From: an uncultured Gemmatimonadales bacterium
GTDB taxonomy: Bacteria; Gemmatimonadota; Gemmatimonadetes; Gemmatimonadales; GWC2-71-9
DNA length: 64,000 nt
NCBI GenBank assembly: GCA_963704015.1
Contig: CAVPGI010000002.1
Span: 36,537 to 100,536 of the forward strand
Reading direction: 5' to 3'
The notes beneath the pieces are model-generated. The model ran no database searches. It was given only the letters and a program-made list of their open reading frames with translations, and was not told the DNA's origin. Position 1 is the stretch's first letter, and every line of letters starts with the position of its first letter. The translations under genes were made by a program, and so were the position numbers. Below are positions 1 to 6,135 of this stretch, one piece after another.

Positions 1-758
1 ACCACGGCCTCTCGAGCGCCTGGGTCAAGCCCTGTCTGATGGAGCTGGGCGGCAAGAATGCGACGGTGGTCATGGAGTCGGCCGACCTCGACGCCGCGGC
101 CGAGGGCGTGATGCGCTCGGCCTTCGGGCTCCAGAACCAGAAGTGCAGCGCCACCAGCCGAGTCTACGTCCACCAAGCGGTGGCTCAGCTCTTCCTCGAG
201 AAGCTGATCGAGAAGACCAAGGCGGTGAAGATGGGCGACGTGACGCAGCGCGACGTCTGGTTCGGCCCGGTGATCAACCAGAAGGCGGTGCAGCGTTGGG
301 AGGGCGCCGTGGCCCAGGCGAAGAAGGAGGGCAAGATCCTGCTTGGAGGCGACCGCCTCAAGGGCGAGACCTTCGACCGCGGCCATTTCGTAGCACCCAC
401 CATCGCCACGCTGCCGCTCGAGAGCACCCTCTTCCGGGAGGAGCTGTTCGCGCCGTTCCTGGCCGTGGCTCCGGTCGCGAGTCTCGAGCAGGCGCTGGCG
501 GAGACCAACAAGGCCGAGTATGGCCTCACCGCGGGATTGTTCTCGAAGAAGCAGGAAGAGATCGACCGCTTCTTCGACGAAGTCGAGGCGGGGGTCTGTT
601 ACGTGAACAAGCGCAGTGGTGCTACCACCGGTGCCTGGCCGGGCGCTCAGCCGTTCACCGGCTGGAAGGGGTCAGGCTCGACCGGGAAGGGTGGCTGCGG
701 TCCCTGGTACGTGCAGCAGTTCATGCGCGAGCAGAGTAGGACGGTGGTGCAGGGGTAG
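1..758 (+). CDS. L-glutamate gamma-semialdehyde (1-pyrroline-5-carboxylate) dehydrogenase / aldehyde dehydrogenase family, 3' portion (5' end outside window)
   Basis: ELGGKNA and GLQNQKCSA catalytic motifs and a C-terminal PFTGWKGSGSTGKGG...FM tail typical of RocA/PruA-type ALDH. Stop TAG at 756-758. Confidence 0.75.
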   Translation, partial: HGLSSAWVKPCLMELGGKNATVVMESADLDAAAEGVMRSAFGLQNQKCSATSRVYVHQAVAQLFLEKLIEKTKAVKMGDVTQRDVWFGPVINQKAVQRWEGAVAQAKKEGKILLGGDRLKGETFDRGHFVAPTIATLPLESTLFREELFAPFLAVAPVASLEQALAETNKAEYGLTAGLFSKKQEEIDRFFDEVEAGVCYVNKRSGATTGAWPGAQPFTGWKGSGSTGKGGCGPWYVQQFMREQSRTVVQG

Positions 759-794
759 AGAAAGGCGGTAAAGGCCTGGCTAGTGCCTGCCTTC

Positions 795-850
795 AGTAAC
801 GCAGCGGTAAGGGACCGCTATGCAGCCCTTACGGTTTAGGCTGCGATGGG
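795..850 (+). terminator. Palindromic stem-loop just after the P5CDH stop (GTAAGGG-N12-CCCTTAC flanked by CGCAGC/GCTGCG). Possible terminator or recombination-site structure.
   Basis: Inverted repeats read directly; no T-tract follows. Confidence 0.35.
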
Positions 851-1130: not shown

Positions 1131-1236
1131 GCCCCCTAACATGCGCTTGAAGCTGGCGGCGCCGGTGGTTCGAAGGGAATTCCTGATGAGGTGCATTGAA
1201 GGCAGGCGCCGCAGCTTAAGCGCCATCCGTTAGGTG
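1131..1236 (+). repeat. attC-like site 1 (R'' CCCTAAC 1134-1140; R' GTTAGGT 1229-1235)
   Basis: L'' ATGCGCTTGAAGCTGGCGGCGCC pairs with L' GGCGCCGCAGCTTAAGCGCCAT with bulged bases. About 88% identical to sites 2 and 3. Confidence 0.75.
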
Positions 1237-1247
1237 GCGGAGGGTAC

Positions 1248-1634
1248 ATGCCATCAGCAACTCTCTTGCGCCTCGTTCGAGAATGGCTTGACGACGCTCG
1301 AGAAACGCACCCTGCGTCTCTAAGCAAGGACGGCTCGGGTGTAATGATCTACGGCGACCTCGGTGGAGCCGCCTATATCCGCGCGGACGGCACCGTTGTA
1401 TTCGAGCCCTGGGACGACCTTCCTGATAATCAATGGCGGGCCGATCCCGGGTTCGTCTACGCGGTTCTGGTTATTGCTGCCAGAAAGCGGCCGGCTCTCG
1501 CCGAGCTCCTTCCGACCCGACCAGCCGCGGCGACTGATTGCGCGAAATGCGGAGGATCGGGGTGGCTTGCGATCGGCACCCACGAGGTTGTTTGCGGTGC
1601 TTGTCATGGTCTTGGGTGGCTCTCCGCCGCCTAA
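1248..1634 (+). CDS. Cassette ORF: hypothetical protein with C-terminal double CxxC zinc ribbon
   Basis: ATG 1248 with a GGAGGG RBS. Stop TAA 1632-1634 is embedded in the attC2 inverse core GCCTAAC. Contains CAKCGG...CGAC. Confidence 0.6.
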   Translation: MPSATLLRLVREWLDDARETHPASLSKDGSGVMIYGDLGGAAYIRADGTVVFEPWDDLPDNQWRADPGFVYAVLVIAARKRPALAELLPTRPAAATDCAKCGGSGWLAIGTHEVVCGACHGLGWLSAA

Positions 1635-1771
1635 CCAGCGCTTGAAGCTGGCGGGCGCTATCGTTTCAAGGGAAGCGGAGTGTCTGTGCGCTGGCGGGCA
1701 CGAACTCACGATCAACAACGCGGCGCGCCGTGTGCGAGTCGCCCACAGCTTAAGCGCGTGGCGTTAGGCGG
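1627..1771 (+). repeat. attC-like site 2 (R'' GCCTAAC 1629-1635; R' GTTAGGC 1763-1769)
   Basis: Terminal inverted repeats CCGCCTAAC...GTTAGGCGG with an internal CCAGCGCTTGAAGCTGG stem. Confidence 0.75.
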
Positions 1772-1785
1772 AGCCGCACACGCTC

Positions 1786-2118
1786 ATGTCAGCATCACCG
1801 AACGAACAAGCGAGAGCCGCCATCATTACTGCAGCTCAAGCGCTTCTCGATGGACAAATCGGTCCAATCGAGGCTGCGCGTCGCATTGCGACTCGACGCA
1901 ATGACCTCGATCCCAAACAGGAAGACGCCGACCTCCTTGGATTTGCCGGAATTGACTCTCAAACGGATCACCTGCTGCTGGGTGCCGACCTCAACACTTG
2001 GCATCCGAGCGTTCGCGAAGAGAAGACTAAGGAACTCGAGGAAACGGAGGAGTTCTTTCGCGCTTCCGCACTTGAAGGCGCCGCCGCCATCCTCGCTCGC
2101 TATGGGCGCCCCGCCTAA
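1786..2118 (+). CDS. Cassette ORF: small hypothetical protein (110 aa)
   Basis: ATG start. Stop TAA 2116-2118 lies inside the attC3 inverse core. Confidence 0.55.
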   Translation: MSASPNEQARAAIITAAQALLDGQIGPIEAARRIATRRNDLDPKQEDADLLGFAGIDSQTDHLLLGADLNTWHPSVREEKTKELEETEEFFRASALEGAAAILARYGRPA

Positions 2119-2216
2119 CCAGCGCTTGAAGCTGGCGGCGCCGGTGGTCTTAAGGGAATCCCTGATGATGTGCGTTGAAGGTAGGCGCCGCGGCTTAAGC
2201 GCAATGCGTTATACGG
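2111..2216 (+). repeat. attC-like site 3 (R'' GCCTAAC 2113-2119; R' GTTATAC 2208-2214)
   Basis: Same family as sites 1 and 2. Its 3' TTATAC is the reverse complement of the GTATAA of the next attC, a hybrid-site signature. Confidence 0.75.
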
Positions 2217-2372
2217 CACGGATGGCGTATCGTGTCGGCAAGTCCCTGTCACCTTCCGATCCGAATGCAGCTGTTCGCGCGCTATCATCTGACCTACAGC
2301 AAGTGGCCGGAGCGACCTGCTAAGTATCAGCCCGCTTAGCTGTGGCCACACTGGATCTAGCCAGGCCGCACG

Positions 2373-3146
2373 GTGAATCTCAAAGACCTCGCGCACAGCA
2401 TCTTGGCTCCGCTTAGTGAGCTGGTGCTTCAGCCCCTCAAGCAGTTCTTTCTAGGACTGAACGCCGGCGATCAGTTAGTTCTATCCATCCTCCTTGCTGC
2501 CTCAGCTGTCTTGGGCTTCGTCCTTGGCAGGCGCCGGGCCAACCGCGATGGTGTGTACAGGATTTTCGGTGCGTGGCGCTTCCCTGCATTCCAGAATAGC
2601 GGGGAGGCGCGGGTCTCTCATGTCTTGCGTTCACACTTCAGCCCTCCCGACTATCACCTGATGAATCACGTCACCATTCGAATGGATGACGGGACAACGC
2701 AGGTCGACCACGTCCTTGTTTCGCGGTTCGGCGTGTTTGTCATCGAAACTAAGGACTTCAACGGCTGGATCTTCGCGAATGCGACCGACGCAACGTGGAC
2801 GCAGGTTCACTTCCGACGGAAGTTCAAGTTCCAGAACCCGATCTTCCAGAACTTCAGGCACATGCGCGCTGTGGAAGGTCTGCTCGACTTCTTACCGCCA
2901 GAGGCAATCAAGTCGGTGGTCGTGTTCAGCGGTAACGCGGAGTTCAAGACAACGACCCCTCATGGAGTGATTGCAATCGGCGATCTAGCGGAGTACCTAA
3001 GGCGCCAGACCGACGAGGTCATGTCGCTCAACCGACTACAGTTCTGCGTGGGAAGGCTCGAGACAGCACGGCTCGCCATCAGCGGTGAGACCGATGTAGA
3101 ACACATACAGAGTCTCGCGCGACGATTCGGCGACGGCGCCGTATAA
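2373..3146 (+). CDS. Cassette ORF: NERD (nuclease-related domain) protein with N-terminal TM segment
   Basis: HVLRSHF...DYHLMNHVTIRMDDGTTQVDHVLVSRFGVFVIETKDFNGWI matches the NERD signature. GTG start. Stop TAA 3144-3146 lies inside the GTATAAC inverse core. Confidence 0.7.
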   Translation: MNLKDLAHSILAPLSELVLQPLKQFFLGLNAGDQLVLSILLAASAVLGFVLGRRRANRDGVYRIFGAWRFPAFQNSGEARVSHVLRSHFSPPDYHLMNHVTIRMDDGTTQVDHVLVSRFGVFVIETKDFNGWIFANATDATWTQVHFRRKFKFQNPIFQNFRHMRAVEGLLDFLPPEAIKSVVVFSGNAEFKTTTPHGVIAIGDLAEYLRRQTDEVMSLNRLQFCVGRLETARLAISGETDVEHIQSLARRFGDGAV

Positions 3147-3267
3147 CAACCGCATGAGGCTGACCGGCCTCGGCCATCGGTTTTCGTAAGGCCAGCACCA
3201 CTCTCGCTGCCCTGCCTGCTTGCGTGAGCGCGCCTCGGCCGGCAGCTTATGCGGGGCGTTAGGCGTC
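3142..3267 (+). repeat. attC-like site 4 (R'' GTATAAC 3142-3148; R' GTTAGGC 3259-3265)
   Basis: L'' CCGCATGAGGCTGACCGGCC pairs with L' GGCCGGCAGCTTATGCGG with extrahelical bases. Sequence is divergent from sites 1-3. Confidence 0.7.
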
Positions 3268-3289: not shown

Positions 3290-3976
3290 TTGCACGCAAA
3301 CAACCTCTTGAGTTCGACCAAGCGAATCGGGACCGGCCTATCCTTCATTATCTTCCCGATAGTCTTCGTCTTTGCCTTTTCGGTTCACCCGGGTTTGCTA
3401 CGCCCTCATGTGCTGGGTCCATCCGAACTCATCCTAAGAGCCCGCGGCGCAGACTTACTTCAGTTCGGGCATGCGTTGGTCACGCTCGATACGGCTCTGC
3501 TCGTGGTCGTCGCGCTGCACTTCATGAAACTCCTCGATCACACTTCTGGCGCATGGTGGGGATTTCTTGGCGCAGCATTGGCGGTATCGGGGTCTCTGGC
3601 GCTGGCAGCTGACAAGGGCGCGCTATGCCTCACGATGAGCGCTCTCAACAAACTCTCCGACGCCGAGTTCACGGCCATGATGCCGGGCCTACTGGCCATG
3701 TTTTCCAAACGCGGGTGGCTTGTCTTGCTCTGGGGGATATTGTTGCTTCCAGTCGGGTTCGGTATCCAGGCCATAGCCTTGCTTAGGAGCAAATCCCTTA
3801 GCCGTTGGCAGAGCCTCCTGCTCTTCGTCGGAGTTCTCCTCATTGGAACGCCTGATGGAGTTGAAATCGTCAACTTGACAGCGTCGGTCCTGCTGGCGAT
3901 CGCATTTGTGCCCTACGGTATTCAGATTATCTGGAGAGAGCATCAAGAAGTCGTTGCAAAGGGCGCTAACCCCTAA
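3290..3976 (+). CDS. Cassette ORF: multi-pass membrane protein (hypothetical)
   Basis: Several hydrophobic helices. TTG start at 3290 or 3308. Stop TAA 3974-3976 lies inside CCCTAAC. Confidence 0.55.
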   Translation: MHANNLLSSTKRIGTGLSFIIFPIVFVFAFSVHPGLLRPHVLGPSELILRARGADLLQFGHALVTLDTALLVVVALHFMKLLDHTSGAWWGFLGAALAVSGSLALAADKGALCLTMSALNKLSDAEFTAMMPGLLAMFSKRGWLVLLWGILLLPVGFGIQAIALLRSKSLSRWQSLLLFVGVLLIGTPDGVEIVNLTASVLLAIAFVPYGIQIIWREHQEVVAKGANP

Positions 3977-4012
3977 CGAGCGCATGAAAGTTGTCGCGCC
4001 GGAGCGGCTACT
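3971..4012 (+). repeat. Partial attC-like site 5 (R''-L'' half only: CCCCTAAC-GAGCGCATGAAAGTTGTCGCGCCGG)
   Basis: Homologous to the 5' half of attC1. No convincing L'/R' partner before the GTTAGCC junction at 4213-4219. Confidence 0.5.
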
Positions 4013-4034
4013 TGAACCAGGGGAGTGAGGCGAG

Positions 4035-4166
4035 CGCCGGTGCCTGGTCCTCAGCTCAGTCGTTCTGTGGATGGAAAGGCTCGGGCTCGACCGGTAAGGG
4101 GGCTGCGGTCCCTGGTACGTCCAGCAGTTCAAGCGAGAGCAGAGCCGGAGGGTGGTGCAGGGGTAA
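4035..4166 (+). pseudogene. Diverged, frameshifted duplicate of the P5CDH 3' end (copy B), followed by a hairpin at 4176-4196
   Basis: About 78% DNA identity to 628-758. Encodes GAWSSAQSFCGWKGSGSTGKG then loses frame. Confidence 0.7.
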
Positions 4167-4259
4167 AGAAGAGAGGGTACCGGCTCGGCCGGTGTCCGCC
4201 TTCCAATAGCTAGTTAGCCCAACGCAAGAGCCGGCCACGCGACATACGAGGAGAGATCG

Positions 4260-5315
4260 GTGAAGAAGCCAAGACGGGCAGAATACACGCCACTCGATTT
4301 CGCCCAATGGAAGGCCTCGAGCTCCCTGTCACTAACCCCAAAGTTCCAGCGACGTGGTGTCTGGAAGCCCGCGGCTCGCTCCTTCTTCGTGGACAGCCTC
4401 CTACGCGGCATGCCGGTCCCGCCTATCTACCTCCGGGAGATGCAGTCCCCCGAACGGGATCGCGTGATTCGCGAAGTCGTTGACGGGCAACAGCGAATCG
4501 CCGCTGTTCTGGACTTCATGGAGGGAAAGTACCGTCTCGCGAAGACCCTGAAGGGTTCATGGGCCGGAAAGCCCTTCAATGGGCTGGCAACAGAGGAACA
4601 GGACCGGGTCACGACTTACGCGTTCTCCGTTGAGGTGTTCCACGGAATCTCGGACTTGGAGGTGCTCGAGATCTTCTCCAGGCTGAACACCTACAGCGTC
4701 TCCCTGAACAGGCAAGAGCTTCGGAACGGGAGATTCTTCGGACTCTTCAAGCAGTCGGTGTACAGCATAGCCTACGAGCACCTGGAGTTCTGGCGTCGTC
4801 ACCGCATCTTCACTGAGCAGAACATCGCCCGAATGCTTGAGGCTGAGTTCGTGAGCGAGGTGTTCATCGCCTTCCTCGCAGGGCAGCAGGACAAGAAGAA
4901 GTCGATCGAGGCTTTCTATGACAAGTACGACGATGAGTTTCCCGACCAGTCGCGCACGGAAAAGCGCTTCCGCGAAGTGGTAGACGAAATACAAGAATCC
5001 CTGGGCGACAATTTGGCCGCGACGGTCTTTCGTCGCCCACCGATACTCTACTCCCTATTCTGCGTGCTGTATCACCGTCAGCATGGCCTTCCCGGTGTCT
5101 CACGTCCAACTCCCAAGAAGCGACTGTCTCAGGAGGAGCGTATGACGCTCCGAGAGGCGGTCGAGTCGCTCTCTGCTCGCGTCGATGCCGCTCGGGCCGG
5201 GGAGGAGGCTCCAACGCGATATGCGCCATTTGTCCAGGCCTGTCTCCAGCAGACGGACAACATCAGACCCCGAGAGACAAGGTTCAAGGCTCTGTATGCA
5301 GCGGCTTTCGAGTGA
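4260..5315 (+). CDS. DUF262 (ParB-like / GmrS-N type nuclease domain) protein; candidate defence gene 1
   Basis: VVDGQQRIAAV (the DGQQR signature). GTG start preceded by a GAGGAGAG RBS. 351 aa with a helical C-terminal half. Confidence 0.7.
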   Translation: MKKPRRAEYTPLDFAQWKASSSLSLTPKFQRRGVWKPAARSFFVDSLLRGMPVPPIYLREMQSPERDRVIREVVDGQQRIAAVLDFMEGKYRLAKTLKGSWAGKPFNGLATEEQDRVTTYAFSVEVFHGISDLEVLEIFSRLNTYSVSLNRQELRNGRFFGLFKQSVYSIAYEHLEFWRRHRIFTEQNIARMLEAEFVSEVFIAFLAGQQDKKKSIEAFYDKYDDEFPDQSRTEKRFREVVDEIQESLGDNLAATVFRRPPILYSLFCVLYHRQHGLPGVSRPTPKKRLSQEERMTLREAVESLSARVDAARAGEEAPTRYAPFVQACLQQTDNIRPRETRFKALYAAAFE

Positions 5316-5318
5316 GTC

Positions 5319-5963
5319 ATGCCGAGGCGAATGCCTGGCCTTCAGGCGGAGTTTCACCGCCAAGTCGCGGAGGCCATGAATCTTGCTGAGATCGGTGAGA
5401 TCGCTCGCGCGGAGGCTAGCGCGGGATCTCAGACCCGCAGTCGGCTGCACCACAGTCGCATCGAACTGTTGTACGAACTGGCGTTCCTTCGCATGTTCCT
5501 CGCGTGGGAGGCCTTTCTGGAACAGACGTTTCTGCGATACCTGTGCGGTTACTCCTCAAGGCACGGCCGCGCCGTTCCGCTCGCTACGGCGTCGTGGTCG
5601 CCTACTCTGGCGCACGCAGAGGCCGCCGTTCTTGGTGGAAGGGATTACGCACTCTGGCACAACCCAACTCAGGTCGCGGACAGGTGCCAGCGCATGTTCG
5701 GAAGTTGTCCCATTGAGGGCGTCGTCCGGTCGAGCATGTCCCGGCTGGAGGCCCTTGCTGCGGTGCGCCATCGCATCGTACACGCGCAGGCTGATGCTCG
5801 CCGCAAGTTTGACAACGCTACGATGACAATTGCGGGCAGGCGCTACAGAGGGGCACGGCCAGGCGCGTTTCTTCGGGACCGAAGTCCCAGCACAACGCCT
5901 CAGGTGCCCTGGCTTGAGCACCTAGGACGGGAGTTGCAGGGTCTTGCTTCTCAGATTGCGTAG
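5319..5963 (+). CDS. HEPN-like protein (Rx4H motif AAVRHRIVH); candidate defence gene 2, coupled 3 nt after the DUF262 stop
   Basis: ATG 5319 lies 3 nt after TGA 5313-5315. C-terminal RHRIVH fits the HEPN Rx4-6H motif. Family assignment not verified. Confidence 0.5.
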   Translation: MPRRMPGLQAEFHRQVAEAMNLAEIGEIARAEASAGSQTRSRLHHSRIELLYELAFLRMFLAWEAFLEQTFLRYLCGYSSRHGRAVPLATASWSPTLAHAEAAVLGGRDYALWHNPTQVADRCQRMFGSCPIEGVVRSSMSRLEALAAVRHRIVHAQADARRKFDNATMTIAGRRYRGARPGAFLRDRSPSTTPQVPWLEHLGRELQGLASQIA

Positions 5964-5997
5964 GCGAGGCAATGGCCGACGGTGGGGCACGGACCCG

Positions 5998-6057
5998 TGG
6001 GCTAACAACGGCATGCAGCGGACGGCCTTCGGCCGGCGCTAATGCCGAGCGTTACCG
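5998..6057 (+). repeat. attC-like site 6 (R'' GGCTAAC 5999-6005; R' GTTACCG 6051-6057)
   Basis: AACGGCATGCAG...GGCC-TTCG-GGCCGGCGCTAATGCCG stem. R'' is exactly complementary to the TTAGCC at 4214-4219, the 5' end of the DUF262/HEPN cassette. Confidence 0.65.
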
Positions 6058-6078
6058 AGTAGGGTAGTGCAGGGGTAA
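6057..6078 (+). pseudogene. Remnant of the last ~6 codons plus stop of the P5CDH 3' end (copy C)
   Basis: AGTAGGGTAGTGCAGGGGTAA encodes SRVVQG* versus SRTVVQG* in copy A. Confidence 0.5.
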
Positions 6079-6084
6079 AGAAGT

Positions 6085-6111
6085 GAGGGCACCGGCTTCG
6101 CCGGTGCCCTC
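6085..6111. terminator. Perfect 12-bp hairpin GAGGGCACCGGC-TTC-GCCGGTGCCCTC; bidirectional terminator between the P5CDH tail and the convergent aminotransferase
   Basis: Read directly from sequence. Confidence 0.6.
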
Positions 6112-6135
6112 TCCGCTTGGTTCTCGAATGCCGAT

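Follow-up and report, generated by a model that had tools for sequence, protein, structure and literature searches.

A PD-T4-2-like DUF262 and HEPN gene pair, a candidate anti-phage module, carried as an integron cassette in a Gemmatimonadales genome

PD-T4-2 is a defence system of Escherichia coli ECOR65 (contig QOYX01000002, 338334-339873; two coding sequences, 1540 bp) catalogued as 'DUF262, HEPN'; protection against T4 was validated in K-12, and its deletion from the native strain restores T4 plaquing (Vassallo et al. 2022, PMC9519451). In the same study HHpred assigned PD-T4-2A to DUF262/DndB/ParBc and PD-T4-2B to HEPN_RiboL-PSP (97.8%) and HEPN_MAE_28990 (96.9%), and a second system, PD-lambda-5, was listed as 'ParB/HEPN, methyltransferase'. 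Operons of ParB and HEPN genes were reported in 2013 (Anantharaman et al., PMC3710099). Integron cassettes have also been reported to encode phage defence. Here we describe a DUF262 gene (open reading frame 1, ORF1) and a small gene directly downstream (ORF2), which together form a single integron-type gene cassette in a 64,000-nucleotide (nt) stretch of DNA, hereafter the window, from an uncultured Gemmatimonadales bacterium (assembly GCA_963704015.1, contig CAVPGI010000002.1, positions 36,537 to 100,536, forward strand). An earlier note on this DNA had suggested that a split DUF262 and HEPN architecture was uncharacterised as a defence system, which is contradicted by PD-T4-2, PD-lambda-5 and the 2013 report. 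Because PD-T4-2 is 'DUF262, HEPN' and operons of ParB and HEPN genes have been on record since 2013, the architecture is already known and validated, and the window pair is a divergent, unannotated family of it. New here are the HEPN partner family, which comprises about 1,050 clusters and escapes Pfam, NCBIfam and PADLOC, and the carriage of one copy as an integron cassette in an array without an integrase in the window. Judged by analogy, the cassette would be a PD-T4-2-like two-gene anti-phage (or anti-mobile-element) module, a reading to which we assign a probability of roughly 0.68. The features of the cassette are as follows; a slash marks a cassette boundary.

4214 to 6051, plus strand: integron-type gene cassette with both genes, 1838 nt, from the TT of G/TTAGCC to the G of the attC core G/TTACCG
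4260 to 5315, plus strand: ORF1, GTG start, TGA stop, 351 amino acids (aa)
4482 to 4496, plus strand: DGQQR motif (D75-R79), the nucleotide-binding signature of DUF262, from sequence reading and alignment A6
5319 to 5963, plus strand: ORF2, predicted HEPN-fold ribonuclease (RNase) effector with no Pfam, NCBIfam or PADLOC model, ATG start, 214 aa
5766 to 5783, plus strand: RHRIVH, Rx4H motif (R150...H155), located where helix 140-154 ends and the next loop starts
6000 to 6057, plus strand: attC of the cassette, R'' GGCTAAC at 6000-6006 and R' GTTACCG at 6051-6057

ORF1 contains VVDGQQRIAAV, read directly from the sequence, and matches Pfam PF03235 (GmrSD_N/DUF262) with an E-value of 3.7e-20 over residues 25-160. 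The Pfam scan returned no second domain and no DUF1524, in agreement with the earlier note, which had described a DUF262 protein lacking the fused DUF1524 domain. In PADLOC the best match was NsnA of Menshen (PDLC03877, E 9.8e-35, residues 22-271), followed by PD-T4-2_A (PDLC04027, E 2.5e-22, residues 17-242). The best structural matches were BrxU and SspE, and phmmer of ORF1 against PDB sequences gave no significant match. At E<=1e-5 there were 1405 homologues, and those listed were about 351 aa long with PF03235 alone. Across 28 of them (58-88% identity, alignment A6) D75, G76, Q77, Q78 and R79 are all invariant, as are FQRRxVW, FxRxN...NxQELRNG and a C-terminal QTDN...PR patch. On the strength of the PADLOC matches and the invariant DUF262 motifs, ORF1 is by its sequence a ParB/Srx-fold DUF262 protein of the nucleoside triphosphatase (NTPase) type with a helical C-terminal domain, an architecture described for NsnA and PD-T4-2A and, in their N-terminal and middle parts, for enzymes of the GmrSD family (PMC12065111).

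ORF2 is the separate 214-aa protein with RHRIVH that had been placed 3 nt after the ORF1 stop. Scans against Pfam, NCBIfam and PADLOC returned nothing above threshold, and phmmer against PDB sequences found no significant match. The protein nevertheless has many relatives: a word-indexed search returned 248 homologues, all of them 'hypothetical proteins' of 204-215 aa without a Pfam domain, and a profile search of 1.84 billion representatives returned 1053 clusters (counted at 50% identity) at E<=1e-3, including 165 at E<=1e-30. The family ranges over the Acidobacteriota, Proteobacteria, Planctomycetota, Verrucomicrobiota, Nitrospirota and Actinomycetota. R150, H151, R152 and H155 are invariant across 28 close relatives, and a 40-sequence alignment reaching down to 22% identity (A3) has ten invariant columns, E64, E68, R150 and H155 among them. 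Since R150 and H155 persist to 22% identity, the Rx4H conservation appears well beyond that of a chance motif. The distant members in A3 have RNxxxH in place of RHRIVH, and RNxxxH is the commonest form of the HEPN motif.

The AlphaFold model of ORF2 (pLDDT 94, pTM 0.89) is mainly helical and contains the four-helix up-and-down bundle core of the HEPN superfamily. The invariant E64 and E68 lie in a long helix (45-75) ahead of the motif helix (140-154), and the position of the motif agrees with the published active-site description, which places it at the end of helix 3 (Anantharaman et al., PMC3710099). The top structural matches of ORF2 were HEPN-MNT systems. A Foldseek search of PDB with the ORF2 model gave nothing below E 0.5. 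The HEPN-like fold and the conserved Rx4H put forward earlier are therefore both borne out, by the four-helix bundle of the model and by the invariance of R150 and H155 in 40 sequences. Recognition by family models had been proposed for both proteins; it held for DUF262 in ORF1 and failed for ORF2, for which no HEPN family matched above threshold. When 28 relatives of ORF2 were scanned singly against Pfam, PF18735 (RiboL-PSP-HEPN) was the only recurrent family, in 9 of 28, with a best E of 0.0068, always sub-threshold and always on the motif helix. Distant relatives scored 10-15 bits against this model, whose gathering threshold is 28.4 bits, and ORF2 itself had no match to it. Taking motif conservation and predicted fold together, ORF2 very probably belongs to the HEPN superfamily.

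These domain results bear on whether the pair might instead be a split type IV (modification-dependent) restriction-like system acting on DNA, with ORF1 as NTPase and nuclease and with ORF2, in that case no RNase, as an accessory or specificity subunit in place of GmrD/DUF1524. GmrSD, BrxU and SspE have DUF262 as their N-terminal module, GmrS and GmrD exist as split genes (PMC4619093), and ParB-like domains have been termed nucleases. The invariant residues of ORF2, however, are those of the HEPN Rx4H motif together with acidic residues, and in the Pfam, NCBIfam and PADLOC scans the protein shows neither His-Me/DUF1524 nor any other DNase signature, which makes such a system distinctly improbable.

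The TGA of ORF1 and the ATG of ORF2 are separated by 3 nt (gtc). In a neighbourhood survey of about 45 contexts, a check that the earlier note had proposed, the two genes proved to be co-conserved: 31 of 35 loci (L001-L035) have a same-strand DUF262 gene immediately before the ORF2 homologue, with gaps of -1 to about 15 nt, and the pair is present in 7/7 further contigs, including L042-L046 and one Joint Genome Institute (JGI) contig. Two of the exceptions, L013 and L025, are cut by contig ends; the others are the most distant, solo relatives of ORF2, adjoining the genes for isoleucyl-tRNA synthetase (IleRS; L033) and a formyltransferase (L035). A Glutamicibacter conjugative plasmid, found through ORF1, has a distant ORF2 relative with RNQAAH downstream (hhalign 87%). 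The database protein P0133 (427 aa) has the C-terminal half of a DUF262 protein (49% identical to ORF1 residues 142-328) in frame with an ORF2-like domain and could be a natural gene fusion or the product of a lost stop codon. The flanks beyond the coding region are unrelated between loci, the distribution across phyla is patchy, and ORF1 is more conserved than ORF2; the DUF262 and ORF2-type pair moves as a block. On an Acidobacteriota contig (L026, 4909-5848) the DUF262 gene that precedes the ORF2 homologue is broken by frame changes into three matching pieces and is probably a pseudogene.

Among 101 immediate neighbours at 28 loci, DNA methyltransferases were the commonest families (UPF0020 8, N6_N4_Mtase 7, D12 5, HsdM 2, HsdS 2). 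It is in the distant RNxxxH branch of the ORF2 family that the methylase neighbours occur: L018, L020 and L031 have a methylase directly upstream of the pair, L024 has an Eco57I-type methylase downstream, and in L022 the pair stands between HsdS on the upstream side and a second GmrSD_N protein on the downstream side. Relatives in this branch also lie inside type I restriction-modification (R-M) loci. The resulting three-gene arrangement of methylase, DUF262 and HEPN genes (L018, L020, L022, L024, L031) resembles that of MAE_28990 and PD-lambda-5. The close relatives of the window pair are without a methylase; L044 adjoins resolvases, L043 lies in a region resembling an integrative and conjugative element (ICE) or plasmid with ParA and TraG, and on the JGI contig the pair stands beside a replication-relaxation protein. 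In L007 a short stretch upstream of the pair resembled a tyrosine recombinase, but the match was not confirmed.

Toxin-antitoxin (TA) cassettes stabilise chromosomal integrons. The main rival explanation is accordingly that the pair is a TA or addiction module, in which ORF2 would be a HEPN toxin restrained by ORF1 and would stabilise the cassette array or a carrier element. HEPN proteins are the toxins of the HEPN-MNT systems that head the structural matches of ORF2, the pair occurs on plasmids, near resolvases, on ICE-like elements and in cassettes, its tight coupling is like that of TA operons, and dormancy roles for integron HEPN cassettes have been proposed (Anantharaman 2013, PMC3710099). 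Yet the upstream partner is a 351-aa NTPase whose nucleotide-binding motifs are all conserved and which is better conserved than ORF2, unlike small labile antitoxins. Its nearest characterised relatives (PD-T4-2A, NsnA, BrxU, SspE) are all components of phage defence, and distant relatives of the pair are embedded in R-M loci. A purely addictive role is on this balance unlikely, and addiction and defence are not mutually exclusive.

The ends of the cassette can be fixed by comparison. The left junction GTTAGCC (4213-4219) is the 7/7 reverse complement of R'' GGCTAAC (6000-6006), and the bottom strand of 5996-6060 folds into a bulged R-box/L-box hairpin (-17.6 kcal/mol, z = -2.95) corresponding to a short attC. 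In a contig from another metagenome (L045), whose ORF2 and ORF1 are 77% and 86% identical to those of the window, homology begins exactly at GTTAGCCCAACG, the same left junction, with unrelated DNA upstream. L046 has GTTAGTCCAACG at the left-junction position, likewise with unrelated DNA upstream. A homologous attC follows the HEPN gene in L045, and the window attC is also homologous to the attC of the preceding L045 cassette, that of a KAP-NTPase, which directly precedes the DUF262 and HEPN pair; the attC sites of the L045 cassettes have a common CCGGCCTTCGGCCGG centre. This comparative evidence, the same left end and a homologous attC, is decisive. The boundaries claimed in the earlier note, G/TTAGCC at 4213 and an attC of its own, are therefore real, and the element is a genuine integron-type cassette. 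L045 (1-5551) thus has three defence-like cassettes in succession, with genes for a GIY-YIG-like protein, recognised below threshold, for a KAP-family NTPase of 770 aa, and for the DUF262 and HEPN pair.

Among 29 loci the junction/R'' signature of the GTTA/TAAC type was found at the window locus only; because it was present in 0/28 of the other genome loci, cassette carriage is a trait of the window sub-lineage and not of the whole family. The attC sites were recognised by testing the complementarity of R'' to the cassette start, after arm-matching and fold-based finders had been applied. The ungapped arm-matching finder found no attC in the window, and the fold-based finder returned two of the attC sites together with two look-alikes inside aldehyde dehydrogenase (ALDH) sequence.

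The cassette belongs to an array situated between an ALDH gene and a convergent aminotransferase gene. The features upstream of the cassette are as follows.

1134 to 3264, plus strand: upstream cassettes of the array, attC at 1134-1235, 1629-1769, 2113-2214 and 3141-3264, repeat families D1/D3/D6
1248 to 1634, plus strand: 'Zn ribbon' cassette ORF, 128 aa, two CxxCxGxG-like motifs, weak DnaJ/BSD2-type zinc-finger matches
1786 to 2118, plus strand: cassette ORF, 110 aa, no match
2373 to 3146, plus strand: NERD protein cassette ORF, PF08378, E 3.3e-26
3290 to 3976, plus strand: cassette ORF, 228 aa, hydrophobic-looking by eye
4009 to 4213, plus strand: left-abutting sequence, a frameshifted pseudo-copy of the last ~52 ALDH codons, a terminator-like hairpin and an attI-like insertion point (...TCCAATAGCTAG/TT)

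The upstream attC sites have RYYYAAC...GTTRRRY ends and long bulged hairpins (z from -1.45 to -4.66 for three of them), and the R'' of each site is the complement of the bases that open its own cassette, as with GTATAAC (3141) and GTTATAC (2208). With regard to the neighbouring cargo proposed earlier, the NERD protein was upheld, whereas the matches behind the 'Zn ribbon' are weak and of the CxxCxGxG type; the broader suggestion that integron cassettes carry defence cargo fits a genuine cassette lying next to other defence-like cargo. The NERD cassette also occurs in L055 (2264-3163, 83% nt identity), where the other cassettes differ. Searching the 64-kb window by tblastn with an approximate IntI probe revealed no IntI-like ORF, and the sole weak candidate proved to be a hydroxyacyl-CoA dehydrogenase. 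Because the array follows the ALDH gene and has no IntI in the window, it is CALIN-like (a cluster of attC sites lacking an integron integrase).

The 3' end of ALDH with its terminator is present in three copies in the window: copy a at 600-762 (the intact gene end), copy b at 4009-4200, and copy c, about 50 nt at 6061-6118, directly after the cassette attC. Copy b has 75-87% identity to 600-762 and no more than 76% to relatives. At the start of copy b the attC belonging to the preceding cassette (R'' 3971-3977) is truncated. The idea that copy b is an ALDH fragment inside an intact attC was rejected, as 3966-4222 has no single long attC fold. Related metagenomic contigs were aligned to window positions 732-815 and 4140-4232. 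In L055 and L063 the counterpart of the copy b region, by alignment, comprises the end of ALDH, the hairpin and the GTTAG junction, and at the same column these contigs carry other cassettes. The DUF262/HEPN cassette is accordingly the first to follow a second, foreign copy of an 'ALDH end plus insertion site' platform. The ALDH/aminotransferase site is empty in L048, L049, L057, L059 and L064 and holds other cassette arrays in L055 and L056 (with a common NERD cassette) and L063 (at least 6 junctions); the arrays in L055, L056 and L063 begin at GTTAG a few bases past the ALDH terminator. None of these eight contigs gave a match to an integrase. The comparison suggests a lineage-conserved, integrase-less (CALIN-like) site of cassette insertion next to a housekeeping gene.

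The sequences establish the domain identities, the motif conservation, the coupling of the genes, and the structure and mobility of the cassette. A sensor role for ORF1, an effector role for ORF2, RNA cleavage and phage defence are inferred, the analogy being with BrxU and SspE and with mechanisms put forward for Menshen and PD-T4-2. ORF1, with its helical, putatively DNA-binding domain (NsnA and PD-T4-2A share this domain pair, as do BrxU and SspE in their N-terminal and middle parts), would act as sensor and switch, binding invading, possibly modified, DNA, and binding or hydrolysis of NTP would bring about a conformational change. ORF2, licensed by ORF1, would then cut cellular or phage RNA, stopping translation and aborting the infection, at an active site made of Rx4H (R150, H155) and the helix-2 acidic residues (E64, E68), probably across a dimer. 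The pair is translationally coupled and moves as a unit, here as an attC-bounded cassette and elsewhere near resolvases, on plasmids and on ICE-like elements. A defence role is supported by the validation of PD-T4-2, by the KAP-NTPase and GIY-YIG-like cassette neighbours in L045, and by relatives beside methylases and type I R-M systems.

Several observations weigh against the PD-T4-2-like reading. The PADLOC PD-T4-2_B model did not match ORF2 or any of 28 family members even at E<=10, so that a link between ORF2 and PD-T4-2_B lies beyond the reach of hidden Markov models. Aligned by hhalign with a bona fide PF18735/PF18737 family (alignment A2), A3 reached a probability of 22% over 22 columns around the motif helix, and against one bona fide RiboL-PSP-HEPN protein the motif helix alone was aligned. 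ORF1 scores higher against NsnA of Menshen than against PD-T4-2_A. A search of the cassette for a sigma-70-like promoter was negative, and just upstream stands a hairpin. Many close homologues (e.g. L001, L042) lie among housekeeping genes and not in defence islands, and the case for the ORF1/ORF2 family is built from sequence comparison and structural models.

In a tentative and rather doubtful alternative the ORF2 family would be an independent HEPN lineage, not a diverged relative of RiboL-PSP/PD-T4-2B, paired separately with an NsnA-like DUF262 sensor. It would then constitute a separate, widespread defence type of soil and freshwater bacteria, missed by current tools and spread partly as integron cassettes at an integrase-less, lineage-conserved site 3' of a housekeeping gene. 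The genomic settings also admit a conserved housekeeping or regulatory pair (e.g. in nucleoid or RNA metabolism) captured in a cassette by chance, since several close homologues are surrounded by ordinary metabolic genes and have no further defence genes in the vicinity. This is very improbable in view of the patchy cross-phylum distribution with unrelated flanks, the carriage on mobile elements and cassettes, the association of relatives with methylases and R-M systems, and the dip in GC content across the array (56-62%, against 66-70% in the flanks).

If the pair does act in phage defence, PD-T4-2-like DUF262 and HEPN systems would be far commoner in environmental bacteria than tools report. 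Because Pfam, NCBIfam and PADLOC all lack a model of the ORF2 effector family, the most that DefenseFinder or PADLOC would report at such loci is an orphan DUF262 gene; a model could be seeded with alignments A1 and A3. The locus is also a clean case of a two-gene defence-type module travelling as a single integron cassette, in a chromosomal array beyond the Vibrio and Xanthomonas models. The mechanistic questions, what DUF262 senses and how the RNase is licensed, are those of PD-T4-2 and Menshen, and no new one is opened; the value of the finding lies in annotation, with an unmodelled HEPN family, and in illustrating defence cargo carried by a cassette array of environmental origin.

Among known systems PD-T4-2 is the closest in layout: a two-gene operon in which a DUF262/ParB-like protein without DUF1524 or ATPase is followed by a small HEPN protein. 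ORF1 matches PD-T4-2_A, and PF18735, the family assigned to PD-T4-2B, is the one weak Pfam signal that recurs in ORF2 relatives. The differences are that ORF2 has no PD-T4-2_B match, with PD-T4-2B compared by model and description alone; that PD-T4-2B is shorter, its HHpred alignments extending to about residue 163, whereas ORF2 has 214 aa; and that the window copy is an integron cassette in a GC-rich environmental bacterium. The PADLOC PD-T4-2_B model is narrow, because it also fails to match a bona fide PF18735 partner, namely the 261-aa protein (E 1.2e-19) overlapped by a DUF262 gene on Klebsiella aerogenes plasmid pC9_001 (L041, 1881-3748). Homologues of the L041 pair occur in E. coli, Serratia, Vibrio and Aeromonas, P0273 (E. 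coli) being present in 111 contigs, and this type is probably another PD-T4-2-like family missed by current models.

Of the 735 records matched in a plasmid collection by tblastn with ORF1, 519 come from E. coli and are mostly conjugative. One E. coli match taken at first as PD-T4-2 (strain KE47; L037, 2411-4225) was rejected, being a 604-aa DUF262-Schlafen/AlbA_2 fusion in a P2-like region; its neighbouring ORFs look phage-like by eye, and its record is labelled a plasmid yet measures 4.9 Mb. On Asticcacaulis excentricus plasmid pASTEX02 (L038, 2465-4607) a 432-aa DUF262 gene overlaps the start of a protein kinase gene, and this pair adjoins a Tn3 transposase and a recombinase.

With PD-lambda-5 and the operons of RiboL-PSP-HEPN or MAE_28990 and ParB, the window pair has in common a ParB-superfamily gene linked to a HEPN gene, and distant ORF2 relatives (RNxxxH, L018-L032) have a DNA methylase adjoining the DUF262 gene, as with MAE_28990. 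The window cassette and its close family are without the methylase of MAE_28990 and PD-lambda-5, and the sequence similarity of the ORF2 family to PF18735/PF18737 is limited to the catalytic helix (the hhalign result of 22%). Menshen (NsnABC) resembles the locus in that NsnA, the best PADLOC match of ORF1, is aligned over DUF262 and part of the C-terminal DNA-binding domain (ParBDB), and in that NsnC effectors are predicted RNases. It differs in its NsnB ABC-ATPase and inPIN-effector NsnC, both absent from the cassette, whose sole gene downstream of ORF1 encodes the 214-aa stand-alone putative HEPN protein; Pfam and PADLOC found no ATPase among the cassette ORFs downstream of ORF1. With GmrSD, BrxU and SspE, the last two its best structural matches, ORF1 has in common the DUF262 NTPase domain with DGQQR, whereas neither ORF1 nor ORF2 has a DUF1524 His-Me domain and the separate HEPN partner presumably acts on RNA. 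HEPN-MNT TA systems and the integron-cassette HEPN protein of PDB 3jrt differ in turn, as the partner in the window is a DUF262 NTPase in place of a nucleotidyltransferase antitoxin, and ORF2 is extended at its C-terminus and has a large insertion separating helices 2 and 3.

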